From the NCBI RefSeq assembly GCF_058153355.1, contig NZ_CM177019.1: a stretch of DNA of 64,000 nt; one strand, given 5' to 3'. Made by a program: the position numbers and the translations under genes. Numbering within the stretch: position 1 is the stretch's first letter; every line of letters begins with the position of its first letter. The notes below the pieces were generated by a model that was given only the letters and a program-made list of their open reading frames with translations, searched no databases and was not told where the DNA came from. Below, one piece after another: positions 2,966 to 63,767 of this stretch.

Positions 2966-4298
<1,333 letters not shown>

Positions 4299-4317
4299 AA
4301 CTTAGTTCGTTTTAAAG

Positions 4318-4342
4318 ATTCTGCAGACACTGTCTGCAGAAT
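4318..4342. repeat. Perfect 25-bp palindrome ATTCTGCAGAC-ACT-GTCTGCAGAAT between yhcH and the yhcG-like gene
   Basis: Read directly; same GCAGAC-N3-GTCTGC core as the three palindromes at 4829-4932. Confidence 0.9.
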
Positions 4343-4367
4343 TCGAAACCGCTGAAATTAACGGCGT

Positions 4368-5234
4368 CTATAGCCTTCCTCTAGCACCGCCTGTGTTCGA
4401 ACGAGTTCGGCGGTGGAAAAACAGCAGATCGACACGAAACCAGTTGTCATCAATGCGTAACCTTCGCTGCCGACCAACAAAGGCAAAATCATCCCCAAGT
4501 TCCAGCATTAAATCCATCAGGTGATTGATCAGCGCCTCCTCAAAATCGGATTCTGAGTATTCATCTTTCAATTCCAGAAATTCGAGCACAAAGGGATCGC
4601 GTATCGCCTGTTGCGGAAGAATATGCGTCTCGGCAGGAGCGTGTTGTTGCAGCATGGCTGATTTGTCATGTGACAGTAGTGTTCGCTCATAAAATTGGGT
4701 CGCAATTTGCCGCTCTAGCTGGCGGACAGACCAACCACAGCGGAGCGCCTCTTTTTCATAAAAGCTGCGGGCGTCAGCGTTTTTAACGGAAAGTAGACGG
4801 ACGTAGGTGGACCAAGGCAGGGGGAACGATTTGGCAGACAGCGTCTGCCAAATCTTTGCCGATGGGAATTCTGCAGACGGTGTCTGCGGAATTCCCAATG
4901 GTGTTAATTCGCCAGACACTGTCTGGCGAATTTCAACATGTTGAAAAAAGAGGTAAAAAAGCCTCATTTGGCGTAAGTTTTTTGCAGAGAACCCACGCTT
5001 ATACCTTAGACTTAAATCCTTTGATAGTCGCTTGATTAGCTGCGCACCATACGCAGCTCTGGCCTCGCCACCTTGTTCAAATTCGACAATTCGTCGGCCA
5101 ATTTCCCAGTACGTCGCGGTCATCAGCGCGTTAACGCTACGTACCGTTTCCGTTCGGGCGCTATCGACCAGATGAATAATGCCGTCGTGGATTTGCTGGT
5201 AGCCTGCTGTGGTTCCTTCTGAGAGCGATTCCAT
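4368..5234 (-). pseudogene. yhcG: YhcG-like DUF1016 (PD-(D/E)XK nuclease family) gene, apparently 3'-truncated and carrying an in-frame palindrome expansion
   Basis: 288-aa ORF with DUF1016-like N-terminal region (…TYWEIGRRIVE…, …NLRQMRLFY…, IWQTLSAK motif). It stops shortly after VDLLFFH, before the expected catalytic E-x-K segment. Only 69 bp separate its stop from the yhcH stop. Confidence 0.55.
4829..4945. repeat. Cluster of near-perfect palindromes inside the yhcG-like coding sequence (4829-4853, 4864-4896, 4906-4932, plus CAACATGTTG at 4934-4943)
   Basis: Read directly: TTTGGCAGAC-AGC-GTCTGCCAAA; GGGAATTCTGCAGAC-GGT-GTCTGCGGAATTCCC; AATTCGCCAGAC-ACT-GTCTGGCGAATT. Each unit encodes a variant of the IWQTLSAK motif in frame. 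Confidence 0.85.
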
Positions 5235-11984: not shown

Positions 11985-12914
11985 ATGCAGTTACAGAAAT
12001 TAGTCAATATGTTTGGTGGTGATCTCACCCGTCGTTATGGGCAAAAGGTGCATAAGCTGACGCTGCACGGCGGTTTTAGCTGCCCTAACCGTGACGGTAC
12101 CATCGGGCGTGGTGGCTGCACATTCTGTAATGTTGCCTCGTTTGCCGATGAAGCGCAGCAGCATCATTCCATTGCCGAGCAACTGGCGCACCAGGCGAAT
12201 TTAGTTAACCGCGCTAAACGCTATCTGGCCTACTTTCAGGCGTATACCAGCACCTTTGCGGAAGTTCAGGTGCTGCGTTCTATGTATCAGCAGGCGGTGA
12301 GCCAGGCCAATATTGTCGGTTTGTGTGTTGGTACCCGCCCGGACTGCGTGCCGGATGCGGTGCTGGATCTGCTTTGCGAATATAAGGACCAGGGCTACGA
12401 AGTGTGGCTGGAGCTGGGGCTACAAACCGCCCACGACAAAACGCTGCATCGCATCAATCGCGGTCATGATTTTGCCTGCTATCAGCGCACGACGCAGCTG
12501 GCGCGTGAGCGCGGGCTGAAGGTGTGTTCTCACTTAATTGTCGGCCTGCCTGGCGAAGGGCAGGCTGAATGTTTGCAAACGCTGGAGCGAGTGGTTGAAA
12601 CCGGCGTGGACGGCATAAAGCTGCATCCGCTACATATAGTAAAAGGCAGCATTATGGCGAAAGCCTGGGAAGCGGGGCGTTTGAACGGTATTGAACTGGA
12701 CGATTACACGCTCACTGCCGGAGAAATGATTCGCCATACGCCACCGGAAGTGATCTACCACCGCATTTCCGCCAGCGCCCGTCGCCCGACGCTGCTTGCT
12801 CCGCTGTGGTGCGAAAATCGATGGACGGGAATGGTCGAGCTGGATCGCTATCTGAATGAACATGGCGTACAGGGATCGGCGCTGGGACGTCCGTGGCTAC
12901 CTCCAACGGCGTAG
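11985..12914 (+). CDS. yhcC: Radical-SAM family protein YhcC
   Basis: ORF 11952..12914 (TTG-extended in track); conserved start MQLQKLVNMFGG at ATG 11985; CxxxCxxC-type Cys cluster (CPNRDGTIGRGGCTFC). Confidence 0.8.
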   Translation: MQLQKLVNMFGGDLTRRYGQKVHKLTLHGGFSCPNRDGTIGRGGCTFCNVASFADEAQQHHSIAEQLAHQANLVNRAKRYLAYFQAYTSTFAEVQVLRSMYQQAVSQANIVGLCVGTRPDCVPDAVLDLLCEYKDQGYEVWLELGLQTAHDKTLHRINRGHDFACYQRTTQLARERGLKVCSHLIVGLPGEGQAECLQTLERVVETGVDGIKLHPLHIVKGSIMAKAWEAGRLNGIELDDYTLTAGEMIRHTPPEVIYHRISASARRPTLLAPLWCENRWTGMVELDRYLNEHGVQGSALGRPWLPPTA

Positions 12915-13009
12915 GCCATTGAGGGGAATTCCGCATTTCTCACACAATTTATAACGTAACTGTCAGAATTGGGTATTATTGGGGCAGGTTGTCGTGAAGG
13001 AATTCCCTA

Positions 13010-15346
13010 ATGAAGCAAATTCGTCTGCTGGCGCAGTATTATGTTGACCTGATGATGAAGTTAGGTCTGGTGCGCTTCTCAATGTTGCTGGCGCTGGCCC
13101 TCGTCGTTCTTGCCATTGTGGTACAAATGGCAGTGACCATGGTGCTGCATGGTCAGGTCGAAAGCATTGATGTTATTCGTTCTATCTTCTTTGGTTTGCT
13201 GATTACGCCGTGGGCGGTCTACTTTCTATCGGTGGTCGTTGAGCAATTGGAGGAGTCACGACAACGTCTGTCACGGCTGGTGCAAAAACTGGAGGAGATG
13301 CGCGAGCGCGATTTGAGCCTCAACGTTCAGTTAAAAGATAATATTGCCCAGCTAAATCAGGAAATTGCCGTTCGTGAAAAAGCGGAAGCAGAACTGCAGG
13401 AAACCTTCGGCCAACTGAAAATTGAAATTAAAGAGCGCGAAGAGACACAAATTCAGCTCGAGCAGCAATCCTCATTCTTACGTTCCTTCCTTGATGCTTC
13501 ACCCGACCTGGTTTTTTATCGTAACGAAGATAAAGAGTTTTCCGGCTGTAACCGCGCGATGGAGCTGCTGACCGGAAAAAGCGAAAAACAACTGGTTCAT
13601 TTAAAACCTGCTGATGTTTACTCGCCGGAAGCTGCCGCGAAAGTTATTGAAACCGATGAAAAAGTATTTCGTCATAATGTGTCTCTGACCTATGAACAGT
13701 GGTTGGATTATCCCGACGGACGCAAAGCCTGCTTTGAAATCCGTAAAGTGCCGTACTATGACCGCGTGGGTAAACGTCACGGTTTAATGGGTTTTGGTCG
13801 CGACATTACCGAGCGTAAGCGGTATCAGGATGCGCTTGAACGCGCCAGCCGCGACAAAACGACGTTTATCTCCACCATCAGTCACGAATTGCGTACACCG
13901 CTGAACGGTATCGTCGGCCTGAGCCGCATTTTGCTGGATACTGAACTTACCGCTGAGCAGGAAAAATATCTCAAAACAATCCATGTTTCGGCCGTCACGC
14001 TGGGGAATATCTTCAACGATATTATTGACATGGATAAGATGGAGCGGCGCAAGGTCCAGCTTGATAATCAGCCAGTTGATTTCACCAGCTTCCTTGCCGA
14101 TCTGGAAAATCTCTCCGCATTGCAGGCGCAACAGAAAGGGTTGCGCTTTAATCTGGAACCGACGCTGCCATTACCGCATCAGGTCATTACTGATGGGACG
14201 CGTTTACGGCAGATCCTGTGGAACCTCATCAGTAACGCCGTCAAATTTACCCAGCAGGGCCAGGTTACCGTGCGCGTGCGCTACGATGAAGGCGATATGC
14301 TGCATTTTGAAGTGGAAGACTCTGGTATCGGCATTCCGCAGGATGAGCTGGATAAAATCTTCGCCATGTATTACCAGGTGAAAGACAGTCATGGCGGTAA
14401 ACCTGCCACTGGCACCGGTATTGGTCTGGCCGTTTCTCGTCGTCTGGCGAAAAATATGGGCGGCGATATTACGGTTACCAGCGAACAGGGCAAAGGTTCA
14501 ACCTTTACGTTGACGATCCACGCACCGTCGGTAGCAGAAGAGGTTGATGATGCGTTTGATGAAGACGATATGCCTTTACCGGCGCTGAATGTGCTGCTGG
14601 TGGAAGACATTGAACTGAACGTGATTGTCGCACGCTCTGTGCTGGAAAAATTAGGTAACAGCGTTGATGTCGCCATGACCGGCAAGGCGGCGCTGGAGAT
14701 GTTTAAACCGGGCGAATACGACCTGGTGTTGCTGGATATTCAGTTGCCAGATATGACCGGGCTGGATATCTCTCGTGAACTGACGAAGCGTTATCCGCGC
14801 GAGGATTTACCGCCGCTGGTGGCCTTAACCGCTAACGTGCTGAAAGACAAACAAGAGTACCTCAATGCTGGAATGGATGATGTGCTGAGTAAGCCGCTTT
14901 CTGTTCCGGCGCTAACCGCGATGATCAAGAAATTCTGGGATACCCAGGATGATGAGGAGAGTACGGTGACGACAGAAGAGAACAGTAAATCAGAAGCATT
15001 GCTCGATATTCCCATGCTGGAACAGTATCTCGAACTTGTAGGACCGAAGCTGATCACCGATGGGTTAGCGGTGTTTGAGAAGATGATGCCGGGATATGTC
15101 AGCGTGCTGGAGTCGAATCTGACGGCGCAGGATAAAAAAGGCATTGTTGAGGAAGGACATAAAATTAAAGGTGCGGCGGGGTCAGTGGGGTTACGCCATC
15201 TGCAACAGCTGGGTCAGCAAATTCAGTCTCCTGACCTTCCAGCCTGGGAAGATAACGTCGGTGAATGGATTGAAGAGATGAAAGAAGAGTGGCGTCACGA
15301 CGTAGAAGTACTGAAAGCGTGGGTGGCAAAAGCTACTAAAAAATGA
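13010..15346 (+). CDS. arcB: Aerobic respiration control sensor histidine kinase (hybrid kinase with receiver and HPt domains)
   Basis: 778-aa ORF; N-terminal TM segments, H-box (SHELRTPLN), receiver domain and C-terminal HPt; adjacent to ArcZ. Confidence 0.95.
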   Translation: MKQIRLLAQYYVDLMMKLGLVRFSMLLALALVVLAIVVQMAVTMVLHGQVESIDVIRSIFFGLLITPWAVYFLSVVVEQLEESRQRLSRLVQKLEEMRERDLSLNVQLKDNIAQLNQEIAVREKAEAELQETFGQLKIEIKEREETQIQLEQQSSFLRSFLDASPDLVFYRNEDKEFSGCNRAMELLTGKSEKQLVHLKPADVYSPEAAAKVIETDEKVFRHNVSLTYEQWLDYPDGRKACFEIRKVPYYDRVGKRHGLMGFGRDITERKRYQDALERASRDKTTFISTISHELRTPLNGIVGLSRILLDTELTAEQEKYLKTIHVSAVTLGNIFNDIIDMDKMERRKVQLDNQPVDFTSFLADLENLSALQAQQKGLRFNLEPTLPLPHQVITDGTRLRQILWNLISNAVKFTQQGQVTVRVRYDEGDMLHFEVEDSGIGIPQDELDKIFAMYYQVKDSHGGKPATGTGIGLAVSRRLAKNMGGDITVTSEQGKGSTFTLTIHAPSVAEEVDDAFDEDDMPLPALNVLLVEDIELNVIVARSVLEKLGNSVDVAMTGKAALEMFKPGEYDLVLLDIQLPDMTGLDISRELTKRYPREDLPPLVALTANVLKDKQEYLNAGMDDVLSKPLSVPALTAMIKKFWDTQDDEESTVTTEENSKSEALLDIPMLEQYLELVGPKLITDGLAVFEKMMPGYVSVLESNLTAQDKKGIVEEGHKIKGAAGSVGLRHLQQLGQQIQSPDLPAWEDNVGEWIEEMKEEWRHDVEVLKAWVAKATKK

Positions 15347-60069: not shown

Positions 60070-61314
60070 ATGGCAACACTAACCACCACCCAAACGTCAC
60101 CGTCGCTGCTTGGCGGCGTGGTGATTATCGGCGGCACCATTATTGGCGCAGGGATGTTTTCTCTGCCAGTGGTCATGTCCGGTGCGTGGTTCTTCTGGTC
60201 AATGGCGGCGCTGATCTTTACCTGGTTTTGTATGCTGCATTCCGGCTTGATGATTCTGGAAGCTAACCTGAATTACCGAATCGGCTCGAGCTTTGACACC
60301 ATCACCAAAGACTTGCTGGGCAAAGGCTGGAACGTGGTCAACGGCATATCCATTGCCTTTGTGCTCTATATCCTGACCTATGCCTATATTTCTGCCAGTG
60401 GTTCGATTCTGCATCACACCTTTGCAGAGATGTCGCTGAATGTCCCGGCACGGGCGGCGGGATTTGGTTTTGCACTGTTGGTGGCGTTCGTGGTGTGGTT
60501 GAGCACTAAAGCCGTCAGCCGGATGACGGCGATTGTACTTGGGGCGAAAGTTATTACCTTCTTCCTCACTTTCGGCAGTTTGCTGGGGCATGTGCAGCCT
60601 GCGACATTGTTTAACGTCGCGGAAAGCAATGCGTCTTATGCACCGTATCTGTTGATGACCCTGCCGTTCTGTCTGGCCTCATTTGGTTATCACGGTAACG
60701 TGCCGAGCCTGATGAAGTATTACGGCAAAGATCCGAAAACTATCGTGAAATGTCTGGTCTACGGTACGCTGATGGCGCTGGCGCTGTATACCATCTGGTT
60801 GCTGGCGACGATGGGCAACATCCCTCGTCCGGAGTTTATCGGCATCGCCGAGAAGGGCGGTAATATTGATGTGCTGGTACAGGCGTTAAGCGGCGTGCTG
60901 AACAGTCGTAGTCTGGATCTGCTGCTGGTCGTGTTCTCAAACTTTGCGGTAGCGAGTTCGTTCCTCGGTGTTACGCTGGGTTTGTTTGACTATCTGGCAG
61001 ATCTGTTTGGTTTCGATGACTCAGCTGTGGGACGCTTGAAAACGGCACTGTTGACCTTCGCACCGCCTGTTGTGGGTGGTTTGCTGTTCCCGAACGGATT
61101 CCTGTACGCCATTGGTTATGCTGGCTTAGCGGCTACCATCTGGGCGGCAATCGTTCCGGCGCTGCTGGCCCGCGCATCGCGTAAACGCTTTGGCAGCCCG
61201 AAATTCCGTGTCTGGGGCGGCAAGCCGATGATTGCACTGATTCTGGTGTTTGGCGTTGGCAACGCACTGGTGCATATTTTATCGAGCTTTAATTTGCTGC
61301 CGGTGTATCAGTAA
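60070..61314 (+). CDS. mtr: Tryptophan-specific permease
   Basis: 414-aa polytopic [36 protein letters not shown]…. Confidence 0.9.
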
Positions 61315-61322
61315 TTGAACGA

Positions 61323-61347
61323 GCCGGATGAGCAGTTTTCATCCGGC
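61323..61347. terminator. Hairpin between mtr and the convergent 176-aa ORF
   Basis: GCCGGATGA-GCAGTTT-TCATCCGGC; no strong T-run, possibly bidirectional. Confidence 0.5.
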
Positions 61348-61373
61348 AATATTCCATAGTGCGCGCGAGGTAA

Positions 61374-61904
61374 TCAAATATATCCTTGTTTATTATAAAG
61401 TTCTTCGGCAAGTGCTTCCCCATGTTCATCGAAAAATGCATTGGCGATCTTTAAATTATTCTCCTCAGGATTTGCCGTTATCCTGCTACCATTGGAATCA
61501 AATTCGAGCGCGATGGCGATCTCCGACCCCCACCAGTAATCATAAATTAGCGCAAAATTATTTTCCCCTGGCGTAATAAATTTCTCGATGCCTCGCACAC
61601 AGGCCATGAGTGGTATGAAGATTTCATAGCTCTCTGAGAGAAATATATGATCCATCGTGACTATCTGTGTTTCTTTATTAAAGTTGATATGTTCGGCATA
61701 AATATTCTTTTCACTTTCACCAGAATTACAAGCTGCAAGATTGTTAAGCATTTTTGCAGGATCGCCGTACAACCGCTGCTTCTCGATAAACCATGGCAAC
61801 CAGTCGTCATGGTCTTTGATATTTGTTGCTGGTGAATGGAAAAACTTCTCGAGGTTACTCTCGGTAATATGTGTATGAAGAAAAAAGGAAGCCGGTTCAC
61901 TCAT
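61374..61904 (-). CDS. Hypothetical protein (176 aa), no recognisable domain; first gene of the AT-rich islet between mtr and yhbW
   Basis: Uninterrupted ORF in AT-rich DNA with a plausible start context; no signal peptide seen; Trp/Tyr-rich (IYDYWWGSEIAIALEFD). Confidence 0.55.
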   Translation of the reverse strand: MSEPASFFLHTHITESNLEKFFHSPATNIKDHDDWLPWFIEKQRLYGDPAKMLNNLAACNSGESEKNIYAEHINFNKETQIVTMDHIFLSESYEIFIPLMACVRGIEKFITPGENNFALIYDYWWGSEIAIALEFDSNGSRITANPEENNLKIANAFFDEHGEALAEELYNKQGYI

Positions 61905-62062
61905 AATGATTTTCTCTGGTAATAAGTCGATTTGTTCATTTCTCTGTTTGGCGATGATAAAACGATGACTATTTTATAAAAGTACAGAACTGGACCTTTC
62001 ATCTATTTCCTATCATAGGAAAATATATACTTGAACTGGATCAGAATAAGCGGAATACGAAA

Positions 62063-62782
62063 ATGGGGTGTAAAGGATTACTCGCTATTGTATTGTTGAG
62101 CCTGTTTATCGCTTTTATTTTAAAAATTTTCTGGCCCACCCCGCACGATGAACATCTTTTCCTGCCCGTTGAAAAACCTTTCGTATCGTCTTTAAAAATC
62201 ATTCGCCCCGGCGACCAGTTATTTATCCGCATTCTGAAAGCGGAAGATAAGCTGGAACTGTGGGCAAGCATCAACAACAAGCCTTACGAACTCTATAAAA
62301 CCTGGACTATATGCGCGTGGTCTGGTGGCTTAGGGCCAAAACACAAACAGGGGGATGGTAAAAGCCCGGAAGGTTTTTATGCCACCAACAAAGGGTTGCT
62401 TAACCCAAACAGCCGCTATCATCTGGCATTTAATATTGGTTACCCGAATGCTTACGATCGGGCAAACGGCTACACCGGTGATTTCATTATGGTTCACGGA
62501 AACTGCGTTTCGGCGGGCTGCTATGCCATGACCGATGCTGGTATTGAAGAGATTTATCAACTGGTGGCGCAGGCGCTGAATAGCGGACAGAAGAGCGTGC
62601 CGGTGCATATCTTCCCGTTTGCGATGAACGACGAAAATATGCGCCAGGCGCAGGCATGGCCGGAATATAATTTCTGGCGTATGTTGAAGCCCGGCTATGA
62701 TTACTTTGAAAAAAATCGCCGATTGCCAACCATCAACGTTGAAAACCGGCGTTATAAAATCAGCCCAACAACTCTTCCTTAA
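62063..62782 (+). CDS. YafK/DpaA-like L,D-transpeptidase-fold (YkuD) protein with N-terminal membrane anchor or signal
   Basis: 239-aa ORF; hydrophobic N-terminus ([18 protein letters not shown]); YkuD catalytic signature [14 protein letters not shown] (His … Ser-x-Gly-Cys) and YafK-like motifs [32 protein letters not shown]. Confidence 0.65.
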
Positions 62783-63767
62783 CATCCATCGCCAGTTCAA
62801 ACGAATGCAGGCGCGCCTGGTGGTCGAAAATCTGCCCGTTAACCATAATCTCATCCGCGTCGGTTTCGCGCAGGATCGACTGCAAACCATGACGCACTTT
62901 CGCTTTATCACCCACCAGCGACATACTCAGCGCCTGCTGCACGCCATACTGCTCAGACGGTGACCAGAACTGATCCATATTTTGAATCGGTGGCGGCAGT
63001 TGCCCGGTTTCACCGCGGCGCAGCTTCACAAAGGCTTGCTGCATTGAGGTAAACAGAAATTCAGCGTCGCGGTTGCTGTCGGCGGCGATAATATTGATGC
63101 ACACCATCGCGTACGGTTTCTCCAGCCGCGCTGACGGTTTGAAGTTACTGCGATAAAGATGCAGCGCCTGGAATAGCATATCCGGTGCGAAGTGTGAGGC
63201 AAACGCGAACGGCAGACCAAGCTGCGCCGCCAGTTGTGCACTGTAAAGACTGGAGCCTAATAACCACACGGGGATTTTCTCGCCATAGCCCGGTACAGGG
63301 CGCACATGCGGATTGGGATCACGGGCGTCAAACCAGTCCACCAGCTCCGCGACATCGCGGGGGAAATTATCAATATCGCCGCTCATATGGCGACGTAGTG
63401 CCATCATTGTCCGTTGGTCACTACCTGGCGCACGACCCAGCCCCAAATCGATTCGCCCCGGATAGAGCGTATTGAGCGTACCGAACTGTTCGGCAATCAC
63501 CAACGGTGAGTGGTTTGGTAACATCACGCCGCCAGACCCCAGATGCAGCGTGGTGGTATTTGCCGCCAGATAGCCAATCAATACTGATGTTGCAGCACTG
63601 GCAATGCCAGTCATATTGTGGTGTTCCGCCAGCCAGTAGCGATGATAGCCGCGCTTTTCAGCCAGACGGGCGAGGTCGAGAGAGTGGGAGAACGCTTCTC
63701 GCGCTGAAGAACCTTCGGGGATGGGGGCCAGATCGAGTAGCGAAAACGCAATGGTTTTATCAGTCAT
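62760..63767 (-). CDS. yhbW: Luciferase-like (LLM class) flavin-dependent monooxygenase
   Basis: 335-aa [29 protein letters not shown]…; its 3' end overlaps the convergent YafK-like ORF by 23 bp. Confidence 0.85.

Follow-up and report, generated by a model that had tools for sequence, protein, structure and literature searches.

The 64,000-nucleotide stretch of E. coli chromosome analyzed here (the window) carries, in this order, nlpI-deaD-mtr, ORF176, a YkuD-like gene, and yhbW-ubiV-ubiU. ORF176 occupies positions 61374 to 61904 on the minus strand, a coding assignment based on the open-reading-frame listing, the RefSeq CDS annotation of carrier genomes, dN/dS, and an AlphaFold2 (AF2) model. 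According to the listing it starts with ATG and runs uninterrupted to give a product of 176 aa. Its GC content is 40.1% (GC3, 41%), compared to 51.6% for the window as a whole and to 53% and 55% for the GC-richer flanking genes mtr and yhbW. The product is an acidic 20-kDa protein (pI 4.66, net charge about −16, 28 Asp+Glu versus 12 Lys+Arg) with a Trp/Tyr-rich stretch, IYDYWWGSEIAIALEFD, at residues 120 to 136. Its N terminus is nonhydrophobic, residues 5 to 12 being modeled as a core beta-strand, and the sequence identifies it as a small, predicted cytoplasmic protein without a signal peptide. These properties agree with the original prediction, which had described an uninterrupted 176-aa ORF in low-GC DNA, with a Trp/Tyr-rich segment and no signal peptide, transcribed away from a YafK-like gene. 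An Rfam scan of positions 61000 to 63000 found no RNA family.

The YafK-like gene in question lies on the plus strand at positions 62063 to 62782 and encodes a 239-aa YkuD-fold, YafK/DpaA-like protein (Pfam YkuD, 2e-06). It scores 252 bits against the NCBIfam model LdtF_DpaA_YafK, below the 365-bit cutoff, and is thus a YafK paralogue rather than YafK itself. The catalytic motif HG...SAGC is retained, the N terminus forms a hydrophobic anchor, and the protein also matches the phage protein family PHROG 17304 at 2e-66. The 3′ end of the gene overlaps that of yhbW by 23 nt (positions 62760 to 62782). Between the divergent starts of ORF176 and the YkuD-like gene is a 158-bp spacer (positions 61905 to 62062; about 36 to 38% GC in the composition profile) that should hold the promoters of both genes; a promoter scan of the spacer called no consensus sigma-70 site. 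An alignment of five orthologous spacers (A3) revealed a partly conserved palindrome, GTACAGAACTGGAC, at positions 61982 to 61995, which is perfect, GTCCAGAAATGGAC, in Superficieibacter (L012) and in the metagenomic locus L004. The palindrome may serve both genes as an operator, in overlap with the promoter region of ORF176. On the other side, mtr and ORF176 converge, and in the 59 bp that separate their 3′ ends a hairpin, GCCGGATGA-N7-TCATCCGGC (positions 61323 to 61347), can be read directly from the sequence. The hairpin was not listed by the terminator scan because it has no T-run, and it may represent a terminator shared by mtr and ORF176.

In K-12 MG1655, the gap between mtr and yhbW consists of 117 bp of REP-like sequence (L019, positions 4457 to 4573). 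Homology between the window and K-12 ends at the mtr stop codon (position 61315) and restarts at about position 62764, at the yhbW stop, i.e., the breakpoints coincide with the stop codons of the two flanking genes. ORF176 and the YkuD-like gene therefore form a two-gene accessory islet of 1.45 kb (positions 61315 to 62763, as delimited by the K-12 annotation and BLASTN of the junctions). In Salmonella, yhbW (STM3276) has been reported to be RamA dependent (PMC3139621) and to be a bistable locus controlled by Dam methylation (PMC7708049), so that the islet adjoins a heterogeneously expressed gene (yhbW, positions 62760 to 63767 in the window).

ORF176 was found in 183 of 5,426 complete E. coli genomes (3.4%), in every case full length, intact, single copy, and chromosomal. 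All 183 carriers have it as a CDS in RefSeq, named “hypothetical protein” or “cytoplasmic protein.” In 182 of them, including E. coli 042, the ORF176 DNA is a common allele 93 to 95% identical to that of the window; the goat strain R32_14_1F is the sole carrier of the window-type allele (99.8% DNA identity). The two E. coli alleles (window positions 61374 to 61904 versus L002 positions 4076 to 4606) have diverged by about 5% at the DNA level, with a dS of 0.18, well above typical E. coli core gene divergence, the window allele being the rarer one. The window protein is identical to an existing NCBI entry, the E. coli “cytoplasmic protein” EGO8351156.1, and its 90% identity cluster comprises 953 members, mostly Salmonella enterica “cytoplasmic protein” entries, the commonest variant being present on at least 1,000 contigs.

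ORF176 is 91% identical to P0001, a member of the STM3278-like family (E value, 5e-105), and more generally Salmonella STM3278 and its RefSeq orthologues (e.g., WP_001294022.1 of E. coli 042) are 91 to 93% identical to ORF176 over the full length. They share with ORF176 both the 90% cluster and the slot between mtr and yhbW, a position that ORF maps and RefSeq annotation place in the window and in E. coli R32_14_1F and 042. No functional difference separates them from ORF176. A published table identifies STM3276 as yhbW and a published list gives STM3278 as a “putative cytoplasmic protein,” from which it follows that STM3278 is the Salmonella orthologue of ORF176; on sequence grounds ORF176 is, conversely, the E. 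coli orthologue of STM3278. By the numbering, STM3277 would be the YkuD-like gene of Salmonella. The term “orphan” used in the original prediction is accordingly inappropriate, as the protein has, in addition to this orthologue, distant relatives in about 134 family clusters (see below).

No copy of ORF176 was found on any plasmid in a search of the plasmid collection PLSDB, nor in a phage search and a scan of viral contigs. The lone PLSDB match, NZ_CP141089.1, is a 4.94-Mb E. coli chromosome misfiled as a plasmid, so that this sole “plasmid” match is also chromosomal.

A codon alignment was built from 12 orthologous CDS, comprising two E. coli alleles, sequences from Chania, Superficieibacter, Leminorella, and Providencia, three metagenomic enterobacterial lineages, and two Firmicute-type contigs. 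The reading frame is kept in all 12, at 37 to 99% amino acid identity. Where dS is unsaturated, dN/dS ranges from 0.07 to 0.18; between genera, synonymous sites are saturated while nonsynonymous divergence is 0.03 to 0.6. By these sequence measures ORF176 is a genuine gene under purifying selection. The original prediction had left room for a spurious ORF or for a member of a known housekeeping family; what was found is a frame maintained under constraint across the 12 orthologues and no match to any known housekeeping family.

Also as stated in the original prediction, the protein has no recognizable motif from which a function could be assigned. No family in Pfam, NCBIfam, or PADLOC matched the window protein, PHROGs gave a match at chance level only (E value, 0.29), and PDB sequence profiles returned nothing credible, all matches being at chance level. 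Pfam likewise gave zero matches for 67 diverse family members plus 10 longer ones. A word-indexed search of 5.8 billion proteins with ORF176 as query recovered close relatives only; its profile version added Leminorella and Providencia, plus relatives 43% identical on a Firmicute-like contig and 37% identical in an Oscillospiraceae metagenome-assembled genome (MAG). Orthologues are thus on record from Salmonella, Chania, Superficieibacter, Leminorella, and Providencia. The sensitive profile searching suggested with the original prediction was taken further with an exhaustive HMMER search of 1.84 billion cluster representatives, which returned 134 proteins at an E value of ≤1e-3, 51 of them at ≤1e-10. 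Nearly all are 172 to 198 aa long and align from residue 1; one, P0051, contains the whole domain twice in tandem. Named members, e.g., those of Burkholderia ubonensis and Saezia sanguinis, are all “hypothetical protein,” and the majority of the family consists of tiny metagenomic clusters. On the sequences collected, ORF176 belongs to a rare, uncurated family of single-domain proteins of about 180 aa that is scattered over Proteobacteria and Firmicute-type genomes.

The family is recognizable by the motifs M-S-E-P-x-S-L-Y, DW..W, YD, [FL]SENY, and an Arg, and the window protein carries the hallmarks MSEPxS, DW..W, S-E-x-Y, R104, and YWW (alignments A2 and A4 and the conservation table). Among 119 full-length members, in window numbering, conserved positions are found at the N terminus (M1, 95%; S2, 86%, with Ala in 8 and Thr in 3 members; E3, 90%; P4, 70%; S6, 82%) and at the DW..W motif (D34, 74%; W35 and W38, 92% each). 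The other conserved positions are Y75 (81%) and D76 (75%), which are Phe and Asn in the window protein, S90 (73%), E91 (84%), N92 (79%; Ser in the window protein), R104 (72%), W125 (79%), and A154 (82%). Two further residues, His72 and Asp85, show no variation in a 14-sequence alignment (A2) of the enterobacterial group with its closest relatives, but they are not conserved over the family as a whole, a point against the functional proposal made below.

Structure prediction, also suggested at the outset, gave an AF2 model with a pLDDT of 88.7 and a pTM of 0.86 from an 11-sequence alignment, and of 96.3 and 0.91, respectively, from a 67-sequence family alignment. The two models have essentially equal secondary structure, the 67-sequence version adding a 4-residue helix at residues 64 to 67, and their agreement supports the homology of the distant family members. 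Both comprise a first strand (residues 5 to 12), three helices (15 to 23, 35 to 42, and 49 to 55), two strands (72 to 76 and 81 to 89), a helix (93 to 108), three further strands (117 to 121, 129 to 136, and 139 to 143), and a long C-terminal helix (148 to 173). The fold is thereby predicted with high confidence to consist of six antiparallel strands in one sheet, with helices packed on it, arranged as b1-a-a-a-b2-b3-a-b4-b5-b6-long a. The modeled core appears to be ferredoxin-like (b-a-b-b-a-b), of the general kind seen in ACT/RAM and dimeric alpha/beta-barrel domains. Foldseek found nothing in the PDB below an E value of 0.1, and among viral models it gave marginal matches (TM of ≤0.39), which include three “YubB ferredoxin-like” proteins and, as the best, an uncharacterized Erwinia phage protein (E value, 9e-4; TM, 0.39). 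On the Foldseek results, elaborations specific to the family would surround a ferredoxin-like core for which the PDB offers no close relative.

The N-terminal motif acquires particular significance from six family members with signal peptides (P0054, P0066, P0085, P0111, P0160, and P0166). In all six, the predicted A-x-A cut falls exactly before the S/T-E-P/L motif, the cleavage junctions being SVSA|SEPASLY, LWA|SEPSSLY, LAA|SEPSAVY, LHA|SEPPGLL, SSA|TELSSVY, and AEA|TELDSIY. In the family as aligned, position 2 is Ser, Ala, or Thr in 109 of the 119 members, and almost always so in the cytoplasmic forms; these three residues at position 2 permit removal of the initiator Met by methionine aminopeptidase. 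Among the 119 aligned members, Ser or Thr occupies the position in 105 and Ala in 8. Met excision and signal peptide cleavage would hence yield an equal S/T-E-P start, i.e., the mature N terminus itself is conserved. The chain in this family apparently must start exactly at S/T-E-P. This would mean either that the free amine or hydroxyl takes a functional part, as in N-terminal-nucleophile (Ntn) hydrolases or Pro-1 tautomerases, or that the N terminus is buried and nonextendable. The conserved N terminus could be purely structural, e.g., a buried amine, and the presence of Ala at position 2 in 8 of the 119 members counts against a strict Ser/Thr nucleophile.

The genomic surroundings of family members were drawn from 12 look-ups of encoding contigs, a genome scan that yielded 2 loci (known carriers were missed), and a metagenome scan that yielded 6. 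A divergent YkuD-like neighbor accompanies the gene in E. coli and Superficieibacter and also in two enterobacterial lineages known from metagenomes. By count, a YkuD gene is present in five enterobacterial lineages and absent beside relatives in at least seven others. At L011, the relative lies alone between yhbW and mtr with no YkuD gene; in Chania it follows an Smr gene, again without YkuD. In Leminorella it is flanked by genes for a predicted transporter and a SymE toxin, and in Providencia by a fimbrial operon and ccdAB. On the Firmicute-type contig a CDGSH protein precedes it and ABC exporters follow, in the Oscillospiraceae MAG it adjoins a GNAT gene, in Burkholderia it follows two unknown genes, and at a further locus it follows glnE. 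At L021, a large LRR protein and then small ORFs are found near the relative, and other unrelated genes flank those on metagenomic contigs. Over about 20 family loci there was no recurrent neighbor, no toxin domain neighbor, and no secretion gene. With no conserved gene neighbor, the link between ORF176 and the YkuD-like gene is positional, and its tie to that gene and to mtr would be an accident of the AT-rich accessory islet rather than the mark of an operon. The co-occurrence with YkuD-family neighbors that the original prediction had proposed to examine consequently does not extend to Chania, Leminorella, Providencia, Burkholderia, the Firmicute-type contig, or L011.

Taken as a whole, we tentatively favor the view that ORF176 works without a partner, as a self-contained module that binds a small ligand or catalyzes a reaction. 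The mature N terminus, left free as Ser2-Glu3 once the initiator Met is removed, would then make up the functional site together with D34, W35, W38, Y/F75, D/N76, S90, E91, R104, and W125. These putative site residues, acidic, aromatic, and others, are conserved family-wide, and they are predicted to cluster around the N terminus. A more specific and unlikely version of this proposal would have the family form a new class of enzymes or ligand sensors in which the amine or hydroxyl of the mature N-terminal Ser/Thr works with Glu3, Glu91, and Arg104 on a ferredoxin-like scaffold. In that class, Met excision would expose the N terminus of the cytoplasmic members and signal peptidase cleavage that of the exported ones. 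If true, the family would use an N-terminal nucleophile or N-terminal base in a fold in which such a mechanism has not been seen before.

The best surviving alternative, which we regard as possible though rather doubtful, is that ORF176 is an orphan immunity or inhibitor protein, a stand-alone acidic binder that neutralizes an interbacterial toxin or another enzyme through protein-protein contact. The small size and acidity of the product (pI 4.66) would suit such a role, as would its location in AT-rich accessory DNA, its patchy occurrence in 3.4% of E. coli genomes and in metagenomic clusters that are rare, the existence of both cytoplasmic and signal peptide versions together with one tandem duplication (P0051), and the variable-region contexts of some relatives, with ccdAB in Providencia, SymE in Leminorella, and the LRR protein plus small ORFs at L021. 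However, none of the approximately 20 contexts has an adjoining toxin domain, none of the 67 members searched matches a Pfam Imm or SUKH family, and the plasmid and phage searches found no copies. Moreover, purifying selection is strong and the polar residues are kept down to about 20% identity, which is more like a fixed ligand-binding or catalytic site than an immunity interface that evolves rapidly.

A partnership with the divergent YkuD/YafK-like enzyme, in which ORF176 would, e.g., sense or process peptidoglycan or Lpp-derived fragments in the cytoplasm and be coregulated through the spacer, seems improbable. The two genes are kept as one islet in E. coli, in Superficieibacter, and in the two metagenomic lineages of enterobacteria, the numbering STM3276 to STM3278 implies a like arrangement in Salmonella, the palindrome in the shared spacer is partly conserved, and Trp, Tyr, and acidic residues abound at the conserved site, as they often do where sugars or peptides are bound. 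Yet the compartments differ, the YkuD protein having an N-terminal membrane or signal segment that ORF176 lacks, and the YkuD gene is missing from the six settings named above in which relatives of ORF176 occur without it.

Still harder to credit is a role as a type III secretion effector of Salmonella and pathogenic E. coli. The suggestion stems from an in silico list of putative Salmonella effectors, in which STM3278 ranks 44th and is tagged with the reference of a virulence (colonization) screen (PMID 15522082); this list was all that was found in the literature on STM3277/3278, the E. coli 042 tags, and YubB/DUF1281. The ranking is a prediction only, and the first 12 residues, which in an effector should form a disordered signal, are here the most conserved and belong to a core strand with a pLDDT of >90. 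Homologues furthermore occur outside T3SS-bearing hosts, namely in the Oscillospiraceae MAG, on a Firmicute-type contig, and on contigs from soil metagenomes, and Sec signal peptides are used by some of them. As for a spurious ORF in AT-rich DNA, which the low GC content, the lack of a family match, and the lack of a strong consensus promoter might have suggested, the conservation data effectively refute it, given a dN/dS of 0.07 to 0.18 with synonymous sites saturated between genera, 134 family clusters, an AF2 pLDDT of 96, and intact copies in 183 of 183 E. coli carriers.

ORF176 is, then, a conserved hypothetical gene of an ordinary kind, one that public databases already annotate; it has carried the name STM3278 since the LT2 genome, so finding it is not news. 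The gene is certainly real, and modeling predicts that its product is made and folds. The family that it anchors comprises at least 134 sequence clusters and is missing from Pfam, the window protein being missing from NCBIfam also; no solved structure was found for it by sequence, and its confidently predicted fold has no close structural relatives in the PDB or among viral models. The identical mature N terminus, whether cytoplasmic or exported, offers a concrete handle on the function of the family. The occurrence across Salmonella enterica and in a minority of E. coli, among them the enteroaggregative strain 042, together with the colonization screen tag, suggests that its real function could matter for enteric biology.

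Regarding known systems, a kinship with Api92/YubB (DUF1281) was considered and rejected on the basis of sequence profiles. The hhalign comparison with F-plasmid YubB gave a probability of 0.1, and the DUF1281 models PF06924 and PF18406 had no match at an E value of ≤10 in the 14 closest sequences or of ≤1 in the 67 members. Api92/YubB proteins are found in plasmid leading regions and phages, whereas no plasmid or phage copies of ORF176 were detected. The F-plasmid YubB gene (DUF1281 plus DUF1281_C) is itself split by a frameshift into two overlapping ORFs (L020, positions 12811 to 13781) and is missing from the PLSDB gene table.

The ACT, RAM, ABM, and Dabb domains, whose general kind of core the model may share, have no sequence similarity to ORF176 (no Pfam match and no credible match to PDB profiles). 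Compared to ACT/RAM/Dabb, the ORF176 model has three helices in place of the first helix and an additional b-b-a unit that includes the 26-residue C-terminal helix, and the N-terminal motif that is the hallmark of the ORF176 family is absent from these families. In Ntn hydrolases and Pro-1 tautomerases, the catalytic residue is the first of the mature chain, reached via Met excision or cleavage. The predicted fold of ORF176 differs from both the alpha-beta-beta-alpha sandwich of the Ntn hydrolases, the model lacking that four-layer architecture, and the beta-alpha-beta fold of the tautomerases. The likeness is by analogy only, and it lies in the mature S/T-E-P N terminus, which the ORF176 family conserves by both routes.
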